From the IMG/VR virus record IMGVR_UViG_2895706988_000001, positions 1 through 36,603 of that record: a stretch of DNA of 36,603 nt; one strand, 5' to 3'. This document shows, one piece after another, positions 6,691-36,603 of the stretch (within the stretch, counting starts at the first letter, position 1; each line of letters starts with the position of its first letter). A model generated the notes under the pieces. The model did not search any database and had not been told where the DNA came from. It saw only the letters and a program-made list of their open reading frames with translations. This DNA comes from a virus. Position numbers and translations under genes: made by a program.

Positions 6691-8829
6691 CTAGTTACTA
6701 ATTTGCTTCCAGTCATCTGCACTTGATGTGCCGATCGCGATATACACTGCACCTGTACCTGTCTTAGCCAGTTGCCCGATAAAAAGTGGCTTATTAGTGA
6801 TAACAGGATATAGTCCTACCTGCCCCGAAACCTCAAATCGTGCATGTTTGCCTATATGAAGCCATGTAATCGTTCCTTGTGGATTCATTTCTCCAGAACC
6901 ATGATAGGGTGGTATATCTCCAGATTTACCACTGTTCATTGCTTTATATATATAGTCACTAGCATTAATTAAAGTATCTTTTTCGTAATTAGTTTGGGCT
7001 TTAAAAGGATTTTCATTTGCGTAACCTTCTCTGACACAGCGCCATCTGTCAGGATGTCCGTCATCGATGTTATAGGCGTTGTTGTCGATAATATCTCCTC
7101 GCATATAATATCCGTTTGACGGAATTTGAGATAAAGCGATACGTTTAACGATATTTTGACCTATATTATCAAAATTATAACTCACGCCTTTCGCTAATGA
7201 AATTATAGGTTTGTCAACGATATTATCTTTAATTGTAACATCGACACATGTCTCTTGTGCAAGTACAGAATATGTGGCAAATCTTGATTTGATAAAGTTA
7301 TCAATAACTCGTACATCTTTAACATAGTTAAGCATTATCGCATATAACACGCTTGATGATTTGTTATCAATCCTGTTATCAATTATATCTACGGATTCGA
7401 TGTAGTTATCAGATGTTCCAGACATATAAATAACGTATTCTGATGTTGATTCAGAACCATGTTTAAAATCATTATCTTTAATTGTCAAATCTTTAATTCC
7501 AGGAAAAACTCCAATTTCTGGACCTTCTGCGCCTGAAAACTTATTACTTAAAATAGAAATGTTTCCCTGTCCTGTAATCAACATATTATACGCTTTATGC
7601 TCGCTTACAAGTTCGCCTTTATTATTATTATCCTTAAACACGTTACTGCTGATTACAGCATTTAATCCAGAAAAGCTCATTCCCGTTAATTTGTTATTTC
7701 GTAATATGTTATTACTCACTGTTAAATTTTCAGTAGCAGACTCGAATCCACAAGTACCATTTAACATTGATAAGTTACCTATGAATTTTCCGTCACGCGT
7801 ACCACCCATAAAATTAAATCCATTTTCTAAGCAACGAATAGCACTACTATTGATGACTGATATATGTTCAGACCACTTATAATGTCCTTCCACTTCAGGC
7901 ATTGAATTATTAGCATTGACAACGTTACCCATGATACCTTCGCCATGAACTTCTTCAGCATGACAGTTATAACATCCTGTAAATCCTATCGCCTTTGCTC
8001 GAGGGCTTGCATACCTGAATGTGCCTTTACCGTCCCACTCGCCTTTAAATTTAAATCCTCGGATGTAACAATCCTTTGCACCTATGAATGAAAATATTGT
8101 AAAAACATCTCTACCAGATGACGAACGATCGTCAATTGTTTCAAGATAATCTTTAGTGAGGCCTTTCATATTTACTAATGGAAGCCCCACACCTTCAATA
8201 ACAATATTTTGACCTGTAATAAGTACACGATAAGGGTCATCTATCGTTGTGCCTGCTGGCATTACCCAGTCATACCCATTTTCAATAGGAGCAACAACTA
8301 ATTTACCTCCACCAAGCGCTTGCAAGTAATCAATTGCACGCTGAAACCTATTTCTATCATCAGTTTCACCATCTAATCGCGGAAAGTCCTTGATTGTTAC
8401 TCCTACACCGTCAGCAAGCACGTTTAATGACTTTCTCACGTCACTTAATCCGTCTGCATTAATAGTCCCAAACTCAATCCATTTCGAGCCATCATAAATA
8501 TACTGTTTGTTCTCGTCAACGACTAATCTCAATTCTTTGAGTTCGGCTGTTACAGGTAATTCACTAAATGTTGCAACTGCGTCAGTAGGTTTAAATTCAT
8601 TTTCCGCGAGCCAATTTTGCACAATCTCGCTTGCAATAATTTCTTCGCCACGATCATCAATCACTTTTTGCACATCAGCCACATTATTGTTGAGCAACGT
8701 CAGATTACTTTTATGATTAGCAACATCGTTTTTAAGCTGTTTAGTATCTTCACCGAGTACACCAAAGTTATTATTAATAATATTCCTTGTATCATCGTTG
8801 TTGTTTACTCCGATAGGTAATATTGTCAT
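6691..8829 (-). CDS. Tail fibre/appendage protein with right-handed beta-helix (pectate-lyase-like, putative polysaccharide depolymerase)
   Basis: 712 aa. DDRNRFQRAIDYLQALGGGKLVV is typical of pectate-lyase-3/tailspike starts. Many PbH1-like repeats follow (NNILRNNKLTGMSFSG, SSNVFKDNNN, IKDNDFKHG, IIDNRIDN, VIDNFIKS). Confidence 0.75.
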   Translation of the reverse strand: MTILPIGVNNNDDTRNIINNNFGVLGEDTKQLKNDVANHKSNLTLLNNNVADVQKVIDDRGEEIIASEIVQNWLAENEFKPTDAVATFSELPVTAELKELRLVVDENKQYIYDGSKWIEFGTINADGLSDVRKSLNVLADGVGVTIKDFPRLDGETDDRNRFQRAIDYLQALGGGKLVVAPIENGYDWVMPAGTTIDDPYRVLITGQNIVIEGVGLPLVNMKGLTKDYLETIDDRSSSGRDVFTIFSFIGAKDCYIRGFKFKGEWDGKGTFRYASPRAKAIGFTGCYNCHAEEVHGEGIMGNVVNANNSMPEVEGHYKWSEHISVINSSAIRCLENGFNFMGGTRDGKFIGNLSMLNGTCGFESATENLTVSNNILRNNKLTGMSFSGLNAVISSNVFKDNNNKGELVSEHKAYNMLITGQGNISILSNKFSGAEGPEIGVFPGIKDLTIKDNDFKHGSESTSEYVIYMSGTSDNYIESVDIIDNRIDNKSSSVLYAIMLNYVKDVRVIDNFIKSRFATYSVLAQETCVDVTIKDNIVDKPIISLAKGVSYNFDNIGQNIVKRIALSQIPSNGYYMRGDIIDNNAYNIDDGHPDRWRCVREGYANENPFKAQTNYEKDTLINASDYIYKAMNSGKSGDIPPYHGSGEMNPQGTITWLHIGKHARFEVSGQVGLYPVITNKPLFIGQLAKTGTGAVYIAIGTSSADDWKQISN

Positions 8830-30900: not shown

Positions 30901-30955
30901 CCAGGTGATCTCCTTTTCTATTTATAGTTTTGTTATCTTTTGTAACTTTTTACTG

Positions 30956-30994
30956 TATAATTTTCTTAATCTGATTAAGAAAGGTGGTGAAATC
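30956..30994 (+). promoter_or_regulatory. Conserved promoter/hairpin/RBS block, copy B
   Basis: TATAAT (30956-30961), inverted repeat TTCTTAA-N5-TTAAGAA (30963-30981), RBS AAGGTGGTGA. Two identical runs of 16 and 17 nt are shared with 33672-33710. Confidence 0.65.
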
Positions 30995-31282
30995 ATGTAC
31001 GAAAAAATGACTAAAAATTATCCTTTTGAATTGTTCTTTGATAAAAGAACTGGTCAAGAAATAAAATTCAATTTGGAAACACCATGGGTAGATGAAGATA
31101 AGTTTTGGGAACAATCTAATACTGAAGTTCTTTTGGATTTTAATGGCTCTAAAGTTATTAAGTCTGACTATGATAACGGCTTTAAGGTAATCTTTATCGA
31201 AACTCCTGATTGTTATTGCATTAAAACCAATTGGGAATTAGATAGTATGCCTGGTGGCAATTATTTACCTAGAATCCAATAG
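30995..31282 (+). CDS. Hypothetical protein, antisense-oriented moron B
   Basis: ATG 30995 follows AAGGTGGTGA. The ORF-track start 30890 has no RBS. 95 aa, no family recognised. Confidence 0.7.
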   Translation: MYEKMTKNYPFELFFDKRTGQEIKFNLETPWVDEDKFWEQSNTEVLLDFNGSKVIKSDYDNGFKVIFIETPDCYCIKTNWELDSMPGGNYLPRIQ

Positions 31283-31421
31283 TTCTATTTTCTTTTAAGA
31301 TATCTTCTAAAGTTTTACTCCCTAGTTTGATGGTAGGCTTTTTTCTGTATATAGCTCTCTTAATCTCCTCCGCCAAGATGACGATTAAGAGAGCTATTTT
31401 TAATGCTTGTAAATTTCTCAT
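31269..31421 (-). CDS. Small protein (50 aa, below cutoff) convergent with moron B
   Basis: ATG 31421 is preceded by AGGAGG at 7 nt. It translates to MRNLQALKIALLIVILAEEIKRAIYRKKPTIKLGSKTLEDILKENRTIGF and overlaps the plus-strand gene by 14 nt. Confidence 0.55.
   Translation of the reverse strand: MRNLQALKIALLIVILAEEIKRAIYRKKPTIKLGSKTLEDILKENRTIGF
31351..31401 (+). terminator. Unidirectional intrinsic terminator of moron B
   Basis: Perfect 14-bp stem atagctctcttaat/attaagagagctat, followed by TTTT on the plus strand only. Confidence 0.7.
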
Positions 31422-31422
31422 C

Positions 31423-31740
31423 TCACATCCTCCTTTCGCTGATTTTATTAACCGCTATACTCAACGTCTGACCTTCATACTTCTTCTTTACTTCTTCCAC
31501 TGCTTCCTCAACAGATTCAGCTTTAACAATCTGACTTAAGTTTGTAATTACTGTGTTCTTTCTCTTACTTAGTAAGTCATAATACACTTTGAAATACTTT
31601 GTGGACCTGGAGGACTCATCAATCATGAAGCGGTTCATTACGCCATCTACATCTCTTTTTTCGATAGCCTTACCGTCCAATATGTCTAGTAACTGCTTTT
31701 TGGTGAATGTCACTTCTTTATGCATGACGTTTGATACCAC
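31423..31740 (-). CDS. Hypothetical protein
   Basis: 105-aa ORF from GTG 31740. An alternative ATG at 31725 lies downstream of GAAGGTGG. Confidence 0.65.
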   Translation of the reverse strand: MVSNVMHKEVTFTKKQLLDILDGKAIEKRDVDGVMNRFMIDESSRSTKYFKVYYDLLSKRKNTVITNLSQIVKAESVEEAVEEVKKKYEGQTLSIAVNKISERRM

Positions 31741-32719
31741 CTTCGCTCTCGAACTCTCTTGCGCTTTCTTCGAGCTCTTTTCTTAACTTCTCACGTTCCT
31801 TTTCAAGATCATCATCGCTTAGTTCATTAGAATTTTGACGATTAGCTTCAGCCGGCTTACTTTCATGTTCAAGCCATTTAGGAGTTATCTCTCTTGATTG
31901 ATTGTTTTTATATTTAAGACGGTTCATCGCTTTTTCTTGAGCTTTCAATTCTGCTTGTTCTGCAGTTTTAATATTCTCAGCTCTGCATCTTTTCAAAATC
32001 GTATCAACATATCCATATCGAGTGGCCTTATTATTCGCTGCAATATCCATTACATACATCATCAGATCATAACCAAATTCTTTTAAGTCATCTGACATTG
32101 ATCGGATTATTGAGTTATTAGGAGTCTGATCTATGTTTTCTGTATAGAACTTATAAACTGATGCGAATTCTTTCTCCTCCACCGCCACCTGCTCTTCTTT
32201 GGTGGTGGTCTCTGGTATAGTCTCTGTAGTAGTCTCTGTGTAGTCTATGGTATTGGTTTGGTCAATCTGAACTTCTCCATTAGACCAATCTGACTCTTTC
32301 CTTTGGTCAATCTGAACTTCTCCATTGGGTCGTTTTGAACTACTCGTTTGGTCATTTTGACCTAATCGATTGTTCACTCGTTCTAACTCATCTAATTTTT
32401 CATAATCGATTGAGTACCAAAGCGTTTTATCAAACTTTGCTTTGTTATAATTGCCGATTAACACTAGCTCTTTTTTTGTTAGATTATTAATCGCTCTCTT
32501 GATTGTTGATTCACTCCAAAATGGAAACTGTTCTGCCCATCCTTTAACTGTGTTATAAATCCATATTCGTCCATCATGTTTATGATTACTTTTAGACAAC
32601 CAGTAATGCATCTGCTGTAATATGATTGCTTCATTTAGTCCTATATGCGATGCCAGAGTAGGCATCACTTGTATAGGATGTTCATCCATCAATAATTTAG
32701 ACATTAAATCCACCTTCAA
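31718..32719 (-). CDS. Replisome organizer / DnaD-like replication initiator
   Basis: 333 aa. The N-terminus (DEHPIQVMPTLASHIGLNEAIILQQMHYW) is a phage replisome-organizer domain. The C-terminal part (YGYVDTILKRCRAENIKT) is DnaD-like. Iterons lie inside the gene. Confidence 0.85.
   Translation of the reverse strand: MKVDLMSKLLMDEHPIQVMPTLASHIGLNEAIILQQMHYWLSKSNHKHDGRIWIYNTVKGWAEQFPFWSESTIKRAINNLTKKELVLIGNYNKAKFDKTLWYSIDYEKLDELERVNNRLGQNDQTSSSKRPNGEVQIDQRKESDWSNGEVQIDQTNTIDYTETTTETIPETTTKEEQVAVEEKEFASVYKFYTENIDQTPNNSIIRSMSDDLKEFGYDLMMYVMDIAANNKATRYGYVDTILKRCRAENIKTAEQAELKAQEKAMNRLKYKNNQSREITPKWLEHESKPAEANRQNSNELSDDDLEKEREKLRKELEESAREFESEGGIKRHA
32208..32360. repeat. Candidate origin of replication: two iteron sets inside the organizer gene
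   Basis: Five TTTGGTCAATCTGAAC-like iterons start at 32260, 32283, 32305, 32328 and 32350 (22-23 bp period). Two 25-mers are identical (32257-32281, 32302-32326). Four GTCT(C/A)TG repeats lie at 32208, 32220, 32232 and 32243. Confidence 0.7.
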
Positions 32720-32957
32720 TCTTTCTGGAATAATTCAATAAGCTTTGTAAATCATCGAATTTCTTATGAATTGTCATTTTCGTCTTACCAACACCATCAA
32801 CACCATACTTAACGACTTGCAATTTCCAATGTGATTCCTTTAAGAAAACAAAGAATTTACAATCTGGACATGTCTTAATCCATTCCAGGTTGTAACTCGT
32901 TGTTTCTTCAAAACCTGCTTCTTTTAGTAAGTCTGCATCTCCGAATCTAGCAACCAT
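32697..32957 (-). CDS. Hypothetical protein
   Basis: 86-aa ORF overlapping both neighbours. Confidence 0.6.
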   Translation of the reverse strand: MVARFGDADLLKEAGFEETTSYNLEWIKTCPDCKFFVFLKESHWKLQVVKYGVDGVGKTKMTIHKKFDDLQSLLNYSRKIEGGFNV

Positions 32958-33651
32958 TCACTTCACCTCTCAAATCCACTTCAATCTGATAAGCTACTTC
33001 GCTTTGTAATTGCCATGTCTCGATGAAACGAATTGCATCCTGGTACTTGCCACGCGGTATACTTTGATAATTAGGTACGTTAAATGCTGTATATAAACTT
33101 CTGTATAATGCTGAATATACTTTTCTACTAATTTTGCTAATCGGTATACCGTTGAATTGATTTTTCATTACTTCTGTTGCTTTTCTCTTAACAGTTTGAT
33201 GAATATGTTTTGATTCACCCGGAAAAACTGGTATAGATGTTTCTATAGCTTCAACACGTTCTACAAGTTCATTATTTCCCTGTGCGATTAATTGGATCTG
33301 CTCTTGTGTAGTTAAAGGCTTAACCTGGTATGAGCCTGTTTTTCTTAAAGTTGGTAGAACATCATCGAATACCCACTCTTCAAATTGTTGTGATGTTTCC
33401 AATTTAGAATTACTTATTAACCTATAAAGATTGCCTTCACTGATAAACTTCTTATTTTGGTTACCTCCAGCAGAAAGGACCTCGTGAAACACGACCCCCT
33501 TTTCATTTGCATGTCTTTTAATTGCATCATGTGGATTTGAATATCCTAATTTAAGTGCAACGTCTGTTGCTGGGAAAAACACCTTTCCCTCTCTCTCTAA
33601 AATCTGTAATGATCCAAATTGCTCATTATCAAATATTTTTAATTCGCTCAT
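32947..33651 (-). CDS. Antirepressor, N-terminal Bro-N domain
   Basis: 234 aa. IFDNEQFGSLQILEREGKVFFPATDVALKLGYSNPHDAIKRH is a typical Bro-N/KilA-type N-terminus. Confidence 0.85.
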   Translation of the reverse strand: MSELKIFDNEQFGSLQILEREGKVFFPATDVALKLGYSNPHDAIKRHANEKGVVFHEVLSAGGNQNKKFISEGNLYRLISNSKLETSQQFEEWVFDDVLPTLRKTGSYQVKPLTTQEQIQLIAQGNNELVERVEAIETSIPVFPGESKHIHQTVKRKATEVMKNQFNGIPISKISRKVYSALYRSLYTAFNVPNYQSIPRGKYQDAIRFIETWQLQSEVAYQIEVDLRGEVNGC

Positions 33652-33671
33652 ACTATCGCTCCTTTATTTGC

Positions 33672-33710
33672 TATAATTTTCTTAATCATTTAAGAAAGGT
33701 GGTGAAATAA
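33672..33710 (+). promoter_or_regulatory. Conserved promoter/hairpin/RBS block, copy A
   Basis: TGcTATAAT extended -10 (33669-33677), inverted repeat TTCTTAA-N4-TTAAGAA (33679-33696), RBS AAGGTGGTGA. Confidence 0.65.
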
Positions 33711-33920
33711 ATGAATTTAAAAGTTATATTGAAATCTGGAAAGTCTGCAATTATCAACAACTTTCAAGAAGTATCATATCCAAATTATGATGAAACAAAA
33801 ATAATCACTGATAGTAATTTGTCTGATATTTCTCTTGTTTCTAACGCTACTTACATCTTTAAAGGTAACCAAAGTGTAGTAGTTAAAGGTGAAGACATTG
33901 AATTGCTTACTTTCGAATAG
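33711..33920 (+). CDS. Hypothetical protein, antisense-oriented moron A
   Basis: 69-aa ORF with a strong RBS. No family recognised. Confidence 0.7.
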   Translation: MNLKVILKSGKSAIINNFQEVSYPNYDETKIITDSNLSDISLVSNATYIFKGNQSVVVKGEDIELLTFE

Positions 33921-34062
33921 TTCCTTTCAATAACTCTGCAGCTACTGCTACTAGCTCAGAGTTATTTGTTTTGTCGTGAAATTTTATTTGATTTAACAAG
34001 TATTCTTTAGCTGCTACTTCTAACTTTCTATTTAATTTCAAATTCTTTATTAAATTTTTCAT
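33907..34062 (-). CDS. Small protein (51 aa, below cutoff) convergent with moron A
   Basis: ATG 34062 is preceded by GGAGGTGAGTGG. It translates to MKNLIKNLKLNRKLEVAAKEYLLNQIKFHDKTNNSELVAVAAELLKGTIRK and overlaps the plus-strand gene by 14 nt. Confidence 0.5.
   Translation of the reverse strand: MKNLIKNLKLNRKLEVAAKEYLLNQIKFHDKTNNSELVAVAAELLKGTIRK
33929..33973 (+). terminator. Unidirectional intrinsic terminator of moron A
   Basis: 10-bp stem aataactctg/cagagttatt with a structured loop, followed by TGTTTTG on the plus strand. Confidence 0.65.
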
Positions 34063-34150
34063 TTATCCACTCACCTCCATGTGATATACTTTAGATATCA
34101 GATATTTTTAATTCGCTTATACCGCTTCTATCGCTCATAGATGCGGTTTT

Positions 34151-34339
34151 TTATTTGTCTTGAAGTAACTTTCCTACATCAGTGCCTCCATAAATGACTA
34201 GCATTAAGAAAAACATGATTGTAACCGTTAAAGCTAATGGATCTATTGATGAGTTGACAGCCATACAATAAATTAAGCTGATTGCTAGCGCTACTAAAGT
34301 CAGTAGCGCTTGTATTAAGATTGCTGCTAAATATTTCAT
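34151..34339 (-). CDS. Small two-TM membrane protein
   Basis: 62 aa with two hydrophobic helices. Overlaps the upstream stop. Confidence 0.65.
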   Translation of the reverse strand: MKYLAAILIQALLTLVALAISLIYCMAVNSSIDPLALTVTIMFFLMLVIYGGTDVGKLLQDK

Positions 34340-34899: not shown

Positions 34900-34930
34900 T
34901 CAATCCCCTCCTTATTCAATTATTAATATT

Positions 34931-34959
34931 ATATTATCCGATTTTTTTCGGACTGTCAA
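34931..34959 (-). promoter_or_regulatory. Early lytic promoter (P-cro) with operator in its spacer
   Basis: Minus strand reads TTGACA (34959-34954), a 17-nt spacer, then TAATAT (34936-34931). The spacer contains TCCGA-N6-TCGGA (34937-34952). Confidence 0.8.
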
Positions 34960-34974
34960 ACGAATTAGTTCGGA
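34959..34974. promoter_or_regulatory. Imperfect operator AACGA-N6-TCGGA
   Basis: 8/10 match to the half-site consensus. Its centre is 22 bp from the centre of the P-cro operator. Confidence 0.45.
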
Positions 34975-35012
34975 AGTTAATATAATAATTCCGTTTTTTT
35001 CCGTATTTTATA

Positions 35013-35970: not shown

Positions 35971-36603
35971 ATGAATTACAAATTACTTACCGGCACTTTA
36001 TTAGCTTCAAGTTTAATTCTTACTGCATGCGGAAGTTCTGAAGAAAATAAAGACGAAAAAAGTGAAGTGAAAAAAGAAAAATCTACAACTGAAAAGGCAA
36101 CTACAGAAAAACCTACAACCGAGAAACCTACTACAGAAAAGCCTACTACAGAGGATCCTACTACAGAAATACCAACAACTGAGCTGCCTACTACAGAAAT
36201 GCCATCAACAGAAGCACCAGTTACTTTTAATGTGAACAACGTGACGTCCAGACAGCAACTAGAAAGTATAATATATAATAATTCAATATCTGAAATGGAT
36301 AAAGCTACTGCTTATAATAGCGCAGTTGACAATGGTGTTATCCCTCAGGGAAATGTTATGGAAGGACCTGCAATAGCTGCTTACGAGAGTTCTTTGAGAG
36401 TTGAATCTGGTGCTGAAAAATCTGTTTATGAATCTAATCCAGATCCAGGTAATCCAAACACAGAAAAATATAATGATTTATTTGAAAATGAGCCTTCTTC
36501 TAATGAACAAGAATCATATCCTTATCCAACTGGTGAATATGATACAAATAGTCCAACATATGAAGAAGATGAAAACGGAAATTGGGTTGAGGTTACAGAA
36601 TAG
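35971..36603 (+). CDS. Prophage lipoprotein with Thr/Glu/Pro-rich tandem repeats
   Basis: 210 aa. A signal peptide with lipobox LTAC (Cys20) is followed by nine 5-aa repeats (TTEKP-like). The stop is the last codon of the window. Confidence 0.85.
   Translation: MNYKLLTGTLLASSLILTACGSSEENKDEKSEVKKEKSTTEKATTEKPTTEKPTTEKPTTEDPTTEIPTTELPTTEMPSTEAPVTFNVNNVTSRQQLESIIYNNSISEMDKATAYNSAVDNGVIPQGNVMEGPAIAAYESSLRVESGAEKSVYESNPDPGNPNTEKYNDLFENEPSSNEQESYPYPTGEYDTNSPTYEEDENGNWVEVTE
36082..36216 (+). repeat. Nine tandem 15-nt repeats (cctactacagaaaag-like) inside the lipoprotein gene
   Basis: Read directly. The units encode STTEK ATTEK PTTEK PTTEK PTTED PTTEI PTTEL PTTEM PSTEA. Confidence 0.9.

Follow-up and report, generated by a model that had tools for sequence, protein, structure and literature searches.

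What are two short plus-strand genes doing inside the early lytic operon of a prophage whose operon runs on the other strand, and why do both begin with nearly the same sequence? The locus lies in IMG/VR record IMGVR_UViG_2895706988_000001 (36,603 nucleotides (nt); hereafter the window), a siphovirus prophage with its late genes and early lytic operon on the minus strand. An earlier note, made from the sequence alone, had described two modules there, which we call cassettes A and B. Each comprises a head with promoter-like and ribosome-binding features, a small plus-strand gene (the cargo), a hairpin (the tail) and a small convergent minus-strand open reading frame (ORF); the two minus-strand frames are referred to as ORF A and ORF B, and all coordinates are collected in Table 1. 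Our analysis indicates that both modules are probably accessory-gene ("moron") cassettes, set in antisense within the early lytic genes of a siphovirus prophage of Macrococcus, which are expressed in the lysogen and exchanged at their conserved ends.

The block common to the two heads (30956-30993 and 33672-33708) consists of TATAAT, an inverted repeat TTTCTTAA-N4/5-TTAAGAAA and the Shine-Dalgarno (SD) sequence GGTGGTG, and an ATG follows 5-6 nt past each block. Pattern and ORF scans agreed that the two copies head plus-strand genes of 95 and 69 amino acids (aa); the identical runs within the block had been given as 16 and 17 nt, of which the first was correct and the second proved to be 19 nt. 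The pattern TTCTTAA-N3-9-TTAAGAAAGG matched twice in the window, both times at the block, with 0.00 matches expected by chance, and the right 19 nt of the block, TTAAGAAAGGTGGTGAAAT, had two window matches at three or fewer mismatches (0.02 expected). Since two copies stand against 0.02 expected, and only two are present in the window, the block is not a generic ribosome-binding-site (RBS) context of many genes. The likeness ends with the head: cargoes and small ORFs share no protein or nucleotide similarity, and the word paralogous, applied earlier to the whole modules, therefore fits the head only. The 8-mer AATAGTTC at both stops, once read as a common motif, was one of many chance 8-mers and was missing from all other cassettes, and we rejected it as a boundary motif.

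The head promoters are -10 or extended -10 candidates only, predicted from the sequence. A consensus sigma-70 scan called neither of them, because their -35 elements are poor, and the proposal that the plus-strand genes have promoters of their own was thus borne out for the -10/extended -10 match and not for a full consensus call. In the lytic part of the window, these two were the only plus-strand ORFs with both a -10-like hexamer and an SD.

Pattern scans, two on viral contigs and one on genomes, yielded 39 loci with 40 head-bearing cassettes; the head was carried by 24 viral contigs and three Macrococcus genomes. Among species-representative genomes, the block occurred in three Macrococcus/Macrococcoides genomes only, and a distant search with the head in the phage database returned no match. 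The heads of these loci (L001-L039) were 93-97% identical to the cassette B head over 62-64 nt within otherwise unalignable flanks, and those of variant-head cassettes about 89% identical over 79-80 nt. The head precedes about 15 unrelated cargo families of 59-283 aa, including the Pfam families Abi_alpha (two proteins), DUF2188, DUF1508, Cas2-like and Zn-ribbon; the Abi_alpha and DUF2188 cargoes match the PADLOC defence candidates PDC-S47 and PDC-S16. This diversity of genes, in 40 Macrococcus prophage cassettes, supports the block as a portable cassette boundary, for which the earlier note had suggested looking. The genes flanking the cassettes were overwhelmingly on the opposite strand, in agreement with the view of the plus-strand genes as independent units that oppose the lytic operon. 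A common tail accompanies the head in 39 of the 40 cassettes, window copy A being the exception.

The ends of the cassettes were resolved best at the site of cassette B, where homology to the window ended at 30992-31010 (start codon) and resumed at 31350-31354 (first hairpin base). These breakpoints held across at least seven different cargoes, with flanks 77-94% identical to the window. In such alignments, the conserved head and tail coincide with sharp homology breakpoints, and the indels and replacements are bounded by these motifs, as they are in the PeSL cassettes discussed below. Cassettes were found at several sites and in tandem in three loci (L004, L011 and L019).

Arrangements of this kind have recently been described, as antisense accessory or defence hotspots in early lytic operons (noncontiguous operons), the Listeria TERi hotspot being the closest; the cassettes are a distinct variant in that they have a conserved head, a dual-coded tail and a family of small constant-N/variable-C proteins, occupy more than one site and form tandem arrays. 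In phage 80alpha, gp19 was "unexpectedly" highly expressed in the lysogen (PMC6107660), and the orf11 and orf19 regions form noncontiguous operons with a clear transcriptional switch on induction (PMC11087260). There, as in the window, an operon encloses an antisense gene that has a promoter of its own (a predicted one in the window), and expression in 80alpha is reciprocal between lysogeny and lysis (PMC11087260, PMC11034616). Genes of opposite orientation nested between co-oriented genes were likewise found in the window, and gp19 has the same tail element and small convergent ORF as cassette B. By homology with these 80alpha cassettes, the plus-strand genes are supported as candidates for lysogen-expressed functions, as had been suggested for them (PMC6107660, PMC11087260). 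Co-transcription of flanking genes across the cassettes, which is reported for 80alpha orf11/orf19, would be consistent with the lack of a T-run on the minus side. In the 80alpha reports (PMC11087260, PMC11034616), no description of a conserved head or tail, a small ORF family or cassette swapping was found for orf11/orf19. The arrangements differ in another respect as to ith/tha: Ith, encoded by a small gene that overlaps in antisense, inhibits Tha (PMC11087260), and in that pair the large defence gene lies in the cI operon and the small inhibitor is antisense, so that roles and operons are inverted relative to the window.

In Listeria comK prophages, the TERi promoter is conserved in 96% of prophages and unrelated genes, including orf69, alternate with terI behind it (Azulay et al., bioRxiv 10.1101/2025.02.27.640495). 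The lysogen expresses TerI from the strand opposite to that of the early module; on induction, the products of the overlapping LMRG_02984 (anti-TerI2) and the flanking LMRG_01518 neutralise it, and anti-TerI2 binds TerI and restores virion production (bioRxiv 10.1101/2025.02.27.640495). The protein of cargo A shares 36% identity with one of 69 aa from Listeria phage PSU-VKH-LP019 (E 7e-4 by database search, 1e-11 pairwise), whose gene (orf69) lies on the opposite strand between cro and ant, the antirepressor gene. In A006, gp34, the LMRG_02984 orthologue, and gp35 (TerI-180) are convergent and overlap by 23 nt, and the pair is the immediate upstream neighbour of ant; geometry and site are those of cassette A, with gp34 at the position of ORF A. 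The features that define TERi recur here: an antisense gene behind a promoter conserved among prophages (40 cassettes, with the promoter a sequence prediction), unrelated genes that alternate at the same site between conserved flanks (at least seven at site B and at least four at site A), and homology and synteny with the Listeria locus, which cassette A has and cassette B does not. Unlike the Macrococcus head, the Listeria TERi head has no palindrome; LP019 has neither a conserved dual-coded tail nor a constant-N small ORF; and TERi occupies one site per phage, whereas the Macrococcus cassettes occupy several and form tandem arrays. Terminase inhibition and self-immunity at TERi belong to TerI; the homology of cargo A is to orf69.

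The PeSLs (promoter-early stem-loops) of T4-type phages, mobile regulatory cassettes whose short repeated motif (sigma-70-type promoter, stem-loop, SD, start codon) precedes unrelated non-essential ORFs (PMC2839356, PMC4122927), resemble the cassettes in that order of elements, although the Macrococcus stem-loop is weak, and in that indels and replacements occur between the motifs. PeSLs are co-oriented with their neighbours in virulent myoviruses, and one element serves as terminator and promoter; the cassettes have a separate head and tail, a terminator inside a coding region and an antisense position. The window is not the hyperplastic region of a T4-type myovirus, and since it belongs to a temperate Staphylococcaceae siphovirus with antisense cassettes, the likeness is one of analogy, not membership. 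With integron cassettes, only the idea of a structured 3' boundary is in common: the Macrococcus cassettes have a promoter-like head, no integron integrase lies nearby and the tail is inside a coding region. Classical morons are not known to share promoter or terminator sequences or to be paired with a convergent gene, and usually lie between late genes or at prophage ends. Like morons (PMC3594210), which have a promoter and a terminator of their own, each cassette adds an extra gene that some relatives have and others lack or replace, and that would be expected to be expressed in the prophage; the terminators are well supported, and the promoters are -10/extended -10 matches only.

Taken as moron cassettes, the two modules could operate as follows. 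The head would provide a -10/extended -10 promoter and, with a short leader, a strong SD; in the middle, which varies, the plus strand would encode the cargo and the minus strand the C-terminal part of a small early protein; and the tail hairpin with its T-run, which lies within the 5' coding region of the small protein, would stop plus-strand transcription only. On the pattern of the homologous systems, the cargo would be transcribed from its own promoter in the lysogen while the lytic operon is silent, and on induction early transcription would run head-on through the cassette, damping the cargo and expressing the small ORF. The cargo would benefit the lysogen, for example through anti-phage defence, and the small convergent protein may neutralise it on induction, as in Ith/Tha and anti-TerI2/TerI. 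Recombination in the conserved head and tail would swap cassettes between phages.

Cargo B belongs to a small family of about eight clusters, with homologues of 48-99% identity in Macrococcoides caseolyticum, Staphylococcus simulans, S. delphini and S. equorum. It had no match in Pfam, PHROG, NCBIfam or PADLOC; its AlphaFold2 model (pLDDT 81.8) is that of a predicted small all-beta protein with no significant PDB or BFVD match. The facing ORF B starts 1 nt past the stop of an upstream 105-aa gene and, from this position, is translationally coupled to it. It has a constant N-terminus, MRNLQALKIALLIVILAEEIKRA, and a variable C-terminus, and matches phrog_16149, phrog_1902 and phrog_10049 over residues 1-36 only; no family for either small ORF was found in Pfam, NCBIfam or PADLOC. 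The hydrophobic helix claimed for this protein was recovered as a hydrophobic stretch of 12-14 residues, borderline as a membrane helix (Kyte-Doolittle (KD) value 1.57 over 19 residues). The geometry described earlier for both pairs, convergent minus-strand ORFs of about 50 aa that begin MRNL or MKNL and overlap the cargo gene by 14 nt, was correct; the equal overlap is a coincidence, because overlaps in relatives span 0-62 nt, and was dropped as a designed feature.

The tail explains the constant part of these proteins. The Macrococcus tail hairpin has the form CTCTCTTAATC-N17-GATTAAGAGGG plus a T-run, and on its minus strand a strong RBS precedes the coding sequence for M-x-(K/R)-L-x-x-(L/I)-KIALLIVILAEEI(K/R). 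In cassette B, the conserved tail element spans 31352-31436 (about 85 nt) and the hairpin arms (31351-31365 and 31383-31397) are complementary at 15 of 15 positions; the cassette A stem comprises 15 bp with one bulge. The two hairpin terminators with a T-run on the plus side only, predicted earlier, were thus both found, and their structure was conserved in relatives. Among 28 distinct tails, 91% of cells were paired, against 33-47% in slid controls, and five pairs were changed on both sides. Wobble cells numbered 32 on plus RNA and 7 on minus RNA, an excess that fits a terminator of the cargo transcript.

This tail extends beyond Macrococcus. Its core was found at about 88-92% nucleotide identity in 124 Staphylococcus phage records and one Mammaliicoccus phage record, and in more than 119 viral contigs; the Staphylococcus tails face cargoes behind a different conserved head, TATAAT-ttTGTTATCGCTACTGCGTTAGATTGGGGGTG. 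The constant N-terminus and strong RBS were present in 39 of 39 tail-bearing Macrococcus-head cassettes, and the same combination in nearly all of the 111 tail-bearing places of a scan of Staphylococcus and Macrococcus viral contigs. In phiSLT, orf49 is a small ORF of the B type and faces an unannotated 93-aa Cas2-like ORF (L040, AB045978, 1147-1428); in 80alpha (L147, NC_009526), the cargo is gp19 (DUF4393/Abi_alpha) and the convergent small ORF of 38 aa (8409-8525) is unannotated. A second convergent pair in 80alpha, gp10/gp11, has a different small hydrophobic ORF. Four Staphylococcus prophage contigs (L043, L133, L139 and L144) have a third head type, cgtgTATAATCACCTCTAAGGAGGTG, with a 6-bp stem CACCTC/GAGGTG, which as a possible translational control hairpin would sequester the cargo SD. 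Two others (L100 and L123) are "empty", with a head remnant and a tail and no cargo ORF, and would yield a short antisense RNA over the small ORF, and in L091 the small ORF stands without head or cargo.

Are the small ORFs genes at all? They might not be functional proteins, their frames being kept open by the terminator hairpin and by ribosome cover of the early transcript, and the conserved part of the small ORF does coincide with the hairpin. The likeness of ORF A to its Staphylococcus counterpart is limited to hairpin-encoded residues and its substitutions have no coding bias; annotation is also inconsistent, the ORF being missing, for example, from the 80alpha record. Against this, every cassette has a B-type frame of 39-99 codons uninterrupted by stops in AT-rich DNA, where we estimate about 0.075 stops per codon by chance. 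The frame is always open to the cargo stop (gaps of 27-209 nt, proteins of 39-99 aa, overlaps of 0-62 nt), and the RBS is strong throughout. In diverged pairs, C-terminal substitutions by codon position numbered 5/8/15, 2/3/9 and 0/1/4, a third-position bias, and C-terminal motifs recur with homologous cargoes in Macrococcus and Staphylococcus despite nucleotide divergence between the genera. Open frames, third-position bias and recurring motifs together mark the B-type small ORFs as genes whose products are constant at the N-terminus and variable at the C-terminus, and we consider the non-coding explanation quite unlikely. The small minus-strand ORF, the conservation of which in relatives the earlier note had put to the test, is therefore conserved in its B type, with a coding signal.

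If the small ORFs are genes, they could encode membrane toxins, with the 3' part of the plus transcript as an antisense antitoxin; the earlier note had likened the modules to type I toxin-antitoxin systems. The type I systems of Bacillales prophages, among them those of Bacillus (txpA/RatA and bsrG/SR4), are also convergent, with a 3' overlap and a gene for a small, partly hydrophobic peptide. A plus transcript stopping at the tail terminator would be complementary to almost all of the small ORF, in the B-type proteins a charged tail follows a hydrophobic N-terminal segment, and the "empty" L100 and L123 would give a short non-coding antisense RNA. Yet neither hallmark of such a system, a non-coding antitoxin RNA or a hydrophobic peptide with its own promoter, was found. 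What lies antisense is a conserved gene that codes for a protein and has a strong SD; the small ORFs are part of the early operon and lack promoters of their own, ORF B being coupled to the upstream gene; its hydrophobic stretch is short, and ORF A has none. The C-termini are long, variable, folded-looking and under selection, no Rfam antitoxin or small-RNA family was matched (two sub-threshold chance matches only), and no PADLOC, Pfam or NCBIfam toxin family was found. We regard the toxin-antitoxin explanation as very improbable.

A reading that extends the moron-cassette interpretation takes the two proteins of a cassette as cognate pairs for defence and self-immunity, in which the variable C-terminus neutralises the convergent cargo on induction and the constant N-terminal helix is a common anchor. 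Ith/Tha (PMC11087260) and anti-TerI2/TerI in related phages are precedents, and A006 gp34, the anti-TerI2 orthologue, stands at the position of ORF A. Across Macrococcus and Staphylococcus, a Cys-rich cargo of about 70 aa pairs with a FK(E/K)EY..L(V/I).S C-terminus and a cargo of 107-112 aa with a (V/I)N.DT motif; the C-termini are under coding selection, and some are Zn-ribbon-like. On the other hand, cargo and C-terminus lie in one recombination block, so that their co-inheritance needs no functional link. Counter-examples are cassette B of the window against L023, L021 against L023, and the Cas2-like cargoes; some C-terminal tails have only 13-16 residues (L024, L046 and L049), and the small ORF occurs without a cargo in L091 and its N-terminus is invariant. 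We therefore hold self-immunity as a tentative extension, less likely true than not.

The head palindrome raises a separate question. It lies directly after TATAAT. With a start about 7 nt downstream, inside the left arm, this is the classic position of an operator, and the palindrome TTTCTTAAT-N3-ATTAAGAAA might be a DNA site at which a repressor of the Macrococcus host or phage covers the transcription start and makes cargo expression conditional. With such a start, inside the left arm, the plus RNA would not contain the complete hairpin. In most cassettes the centre varies between invariant arms, and the RNA hairpins are weak (B, -5.7 kcal/mol, z -1.5; A, -5.3 kcal/mol, z -1.9). Against an operator, the spacing of TTTCTTAA and TTAAGAAA is 4, 5 or 6 nt among cassettes; in a common variant, TTTCTTAATCTCATAGGAAAGG (eight cassettes), the right arm is lost at the DNA level; no palindrome of this sort occurs in the heads of Staphylococcus and Listeria; and neither a similar site in the cI-cro region, the operators of which are of the TTCGGA type, nor a candidate regulator was found. 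In a by-eye comparison with CodY, WalR, Rex, Fur-family and LexA boxes, the best match was the left half of the CodY box, with five mismatches overall. A DNA operator is doubtful. Control of the heads by CI/Cro was dropped, the cI-cro region having only an isolated TTAAGAAAA besides its TTCGGA-type operators. Its intergenic part (34930-35000) has TTCGGA/TCCGAA-type inverted repeats, CCGATTTTTTTCGGA, TTAGTTCGGAAG and TTCCGTTTTTTTCCG, which are probably CI/Cro operators unrelated to the head palindrome.

Alternatively, the palindrome could act as a single-strand hairpin or be an evolutionary by-product, that is, a stem-loop of the 5' untranslated region, a PeSL-type recombination stem-loop or part of a homology arm. 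The loop size varies while the stem is constant; a U.G pair, which can form on the plus RNA only, leaves the variant with a stem of 7 bp; and canonical heads have a second, upstream extended -10-like element, TGTTAT..T, that would place the hairpin in the 5' untranslated region. A subclass of T4-type PeSLs has its stem-loop just downstream of the -10 (PMC2839356). The head palindrome also resembles the tail arms (30956-30984 compared with 31350-31394): on the left, TATAATTTTCTTAATC and TATAGCTCTCTTAATC agree at 13 of 16 positions, and on the right both have GATTAAGA.AG. In Staphylococcus, the tails have TTCTAATC/GATTAGGA and the heads lack a palindrome. Weighing against a hairpin, the stem is AU-rich and marginal at about -5 kcal/mol (z -0.2 for the variant), the upstream promoter-like element is missing from site-A heads and no compensatory change was seen in the arms. 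A hairpin or by-product is a serious possibility, short of an even chance. A more general scheme would join these strands: a two-gene cassette system in Staphylococcaceae siphoviruses, with a constant dual-coded tail (terminator and N-helix), cargo-specific C-termini as self-immunity adaptors that silence the lysogen-expressed defence gene on induction, and related head and tail palindromes (TCTTAATC/GATTAAGA) as structured recombination sites for mobility; we think it unlikely in this full form.

Cassette A departs from the other cassettes in combining the Macrococcus head with a tail and small ORF of its own. Its cargo matched phrog_3505 over its full length (E 5.6e-10); this, its sole family match, has no assigned function, and no Pfam, NCBIfam or PADLOC family was found. 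ORF A is not hydrophobic and had no PHROG or Pfam match. It was called as a 51-aa protein in seven related contigs at 86-92% identity, always convergent with the 69-aa cargo, and its synonymous/non-synonymous substitutions were 3/2 and 2/4, too few for a coding test. The tail has been kept more strictly than the cargo: in the most diverged of these contigs (L148), the cargo has 14 synonymous and 30 non-synonymous codon changes while the tail is nearly invariant, with all its substitutions in the loop or the bulged base and none in the stem. A Staphylococcus contig (L057) has a cargo A homologue of 26% identity at the same site, with an equivalent hairpin and, at the position of ORF A, a 46-aa ORF whose similarity is confined to the hairpin-encoded ELxxxAELLK. 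The coding status of ORF A is less certain than that of ORF B.

At the same site, four other loci (L019, L022, L037 and L039) have the same head in front of other cargoes, in one or two cassettes with the ordinary tail. Beyond cassette A, a terminator at 34121-34153 would halt plus-strand transcription before the cro-proximal early genes; it was kept in L018, L019, L022 and L037, even where no cassette occupies the site. Two copies of a 27-nt repeat flank cassette A, one the true ant 5' end (first eight codons) and the other, at 34096-34122, with ATG changed to ATA. A duplication of the ant 5' end of 25-27 nt also flanks the one or two cassettes in L019, L022, L037 and L039, and looks like a scar of the original insertion into the 5' end of ant. 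In L022, the ATG is retained in the distal repeat copy, and from it a mini-ORF of 21 codons runs as far as the small-ORF start. In L018, whose ant allele is different and whose site A is "empty", the ant 5' end of that phage was seen to be duplicated over a short length at 2100-2160, around TATATCACATGGAGG (in the window, the small ORF's RBS segment), which suggests the loss or exchange of a cassette at this place.

Several observations weigh against our interpretation of the modules as lysogen-expressed cassettes. The -35 elements of the heads are poor and the consensus scan called neither promoter, and the expression records stem from homologous phages, none of them from Macrococcus phages. 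Neither window cargo has a known function or fold match, so that "defence" is extrapolated from other cargoes. ORF A is an uncertain gene, with few substitutions and a similarity limited to the hairpin, and the B-type small ORF persists in L091, where no cargo is present, and in L100 and L123, where head remnants are all that is left of the rest. Its invariant N-terminus fits a cargo-independent function better than a dedicated antidote, and homologous cargoes can have unrelated small-ORF C-termini (cassette B of the window and L023; the Cas2-like cargoes); linkage alone would lead one to expect the co-inheritance of cargo and C-terminus.

The head (about 40 nt) and tail core (about 51 nt) provide a sequence handle for prophage accessory and defence genes in Macrococcus and Staphylococcus phages, many of which are unannotated, such as the phiSLT 93-aa Cas2-like ORF and the 38-aa ORF beside 80alpha gp19. 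The resulting cargo list includes the Abi_alpha and DUF2188 defence candidates and about 12 uncharacterised families that can be tested as anti-phage or lysogeny-stabilising factors. The constant-N/variable-C proteins are candidate cognate inhibitors and, if this is true, would generalise the Ith/Tha and anti-TerI/TerI principle against prophage autoimmunity. The conserved ends may be regulatory sequences that double as recombination arms in a temperate Gram-positive phage.

Table 1. Positions of the cassette elements and neighbouring genes in the window
Feature	Position	Strand	Remarks
Cassette B head	30929-30994	+	conserved upstream stretch, TATAAT, palindrome, SD
Upstream extended -10-like TGTTATCTT	30931-30939	+	cassette B head
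TATAAT	30956-30961	+	cassette B head
Palindrome TTTCTTAAT-CTG-ATTAAGAAA	30962-30982	+	cassette B head
SD GGTGGTG	30983-30989	+	cassette B head
Cargo gene B	30995-31282	+	95 aa
Small early-operon ORF B	31269-31421	-	50 aa, MRNL..., RBS AGGAGG
Tail hairpin B	31351-31397, T-run to 31401	+ only	-23.9 kcal/mol, z -6.2
Cassette A head	33672-33710	+	starts 20 nt from ant start codon (opposite strand)
Extended -10 TGcTATAAT	TATAAT at 33672-33677	+	cassette A head
Palindrome TTTCTTAA-TCAT-TTAAGAAA	33678-33697	+	cassette A head
SD GGTGGTG	33698-33704	+	cassette A head
Cargo gene A	33711-33920	+	69 aa, phrog_3505
Small early-operon ORF A	33907-34062	-	51 aa, MKNL..., RBS GGAGGTGAGTGG
Tail hairpin A	33929-33966, then TTGTTTTG to 33974	+ only	-16.9 kcal/mol, z -3.6
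"Backstop" terminator	34121-34153	+	ACCGCtTCTA...TAGAtGCGGT then TTTTTT; -11.8 kcal/mol, z -3.6 (terminator scan)
27-nt direct repeat, right copy	33627-33653	.	true ant 5' end (MSELKIFD); family D8, 93% identity
Cro-like helix-turn-helix	34899-34654	-	early operon
DUF771 gene, then 62-aa membrane protein gene	after Cro-like helix-turn-helix in early-operon order	-	
Bro-N/ORF6C antirepressor (ant)	33651-32947	-	early operon
DnaD-like initiator	32719-31718	-	early operon
Single-stranded-DNA-binding protein (SSB)	30517-30035	-	early operon
cI side	from 35076	+	

Both cargo proteins were 99% identical to proteins of Macrococcoides caseolyticum and M. canis, and a megablast search of the region against the GenBank phage collection returned no match, no phage there being close at the DNA level. 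Inside the gene for the DnaD-like initiator (32251-32371), three direct repeats spaced 45 nt apart (TTTGGTCAATCTGAACTTCTCCATT) are probably iterons of the phage origin, comparable to those annotated inside gp20 of 80alpha. On the lysogeny side, a plus-strand ORF that runs from 35971 to the end of the window contains at least eight tandem 15-nt units (36060-36224) coding for T-E-K-P-T-type repeats, and its product may be a surface or lipoprotein-like protein for lysogenic conversion or exclusion.

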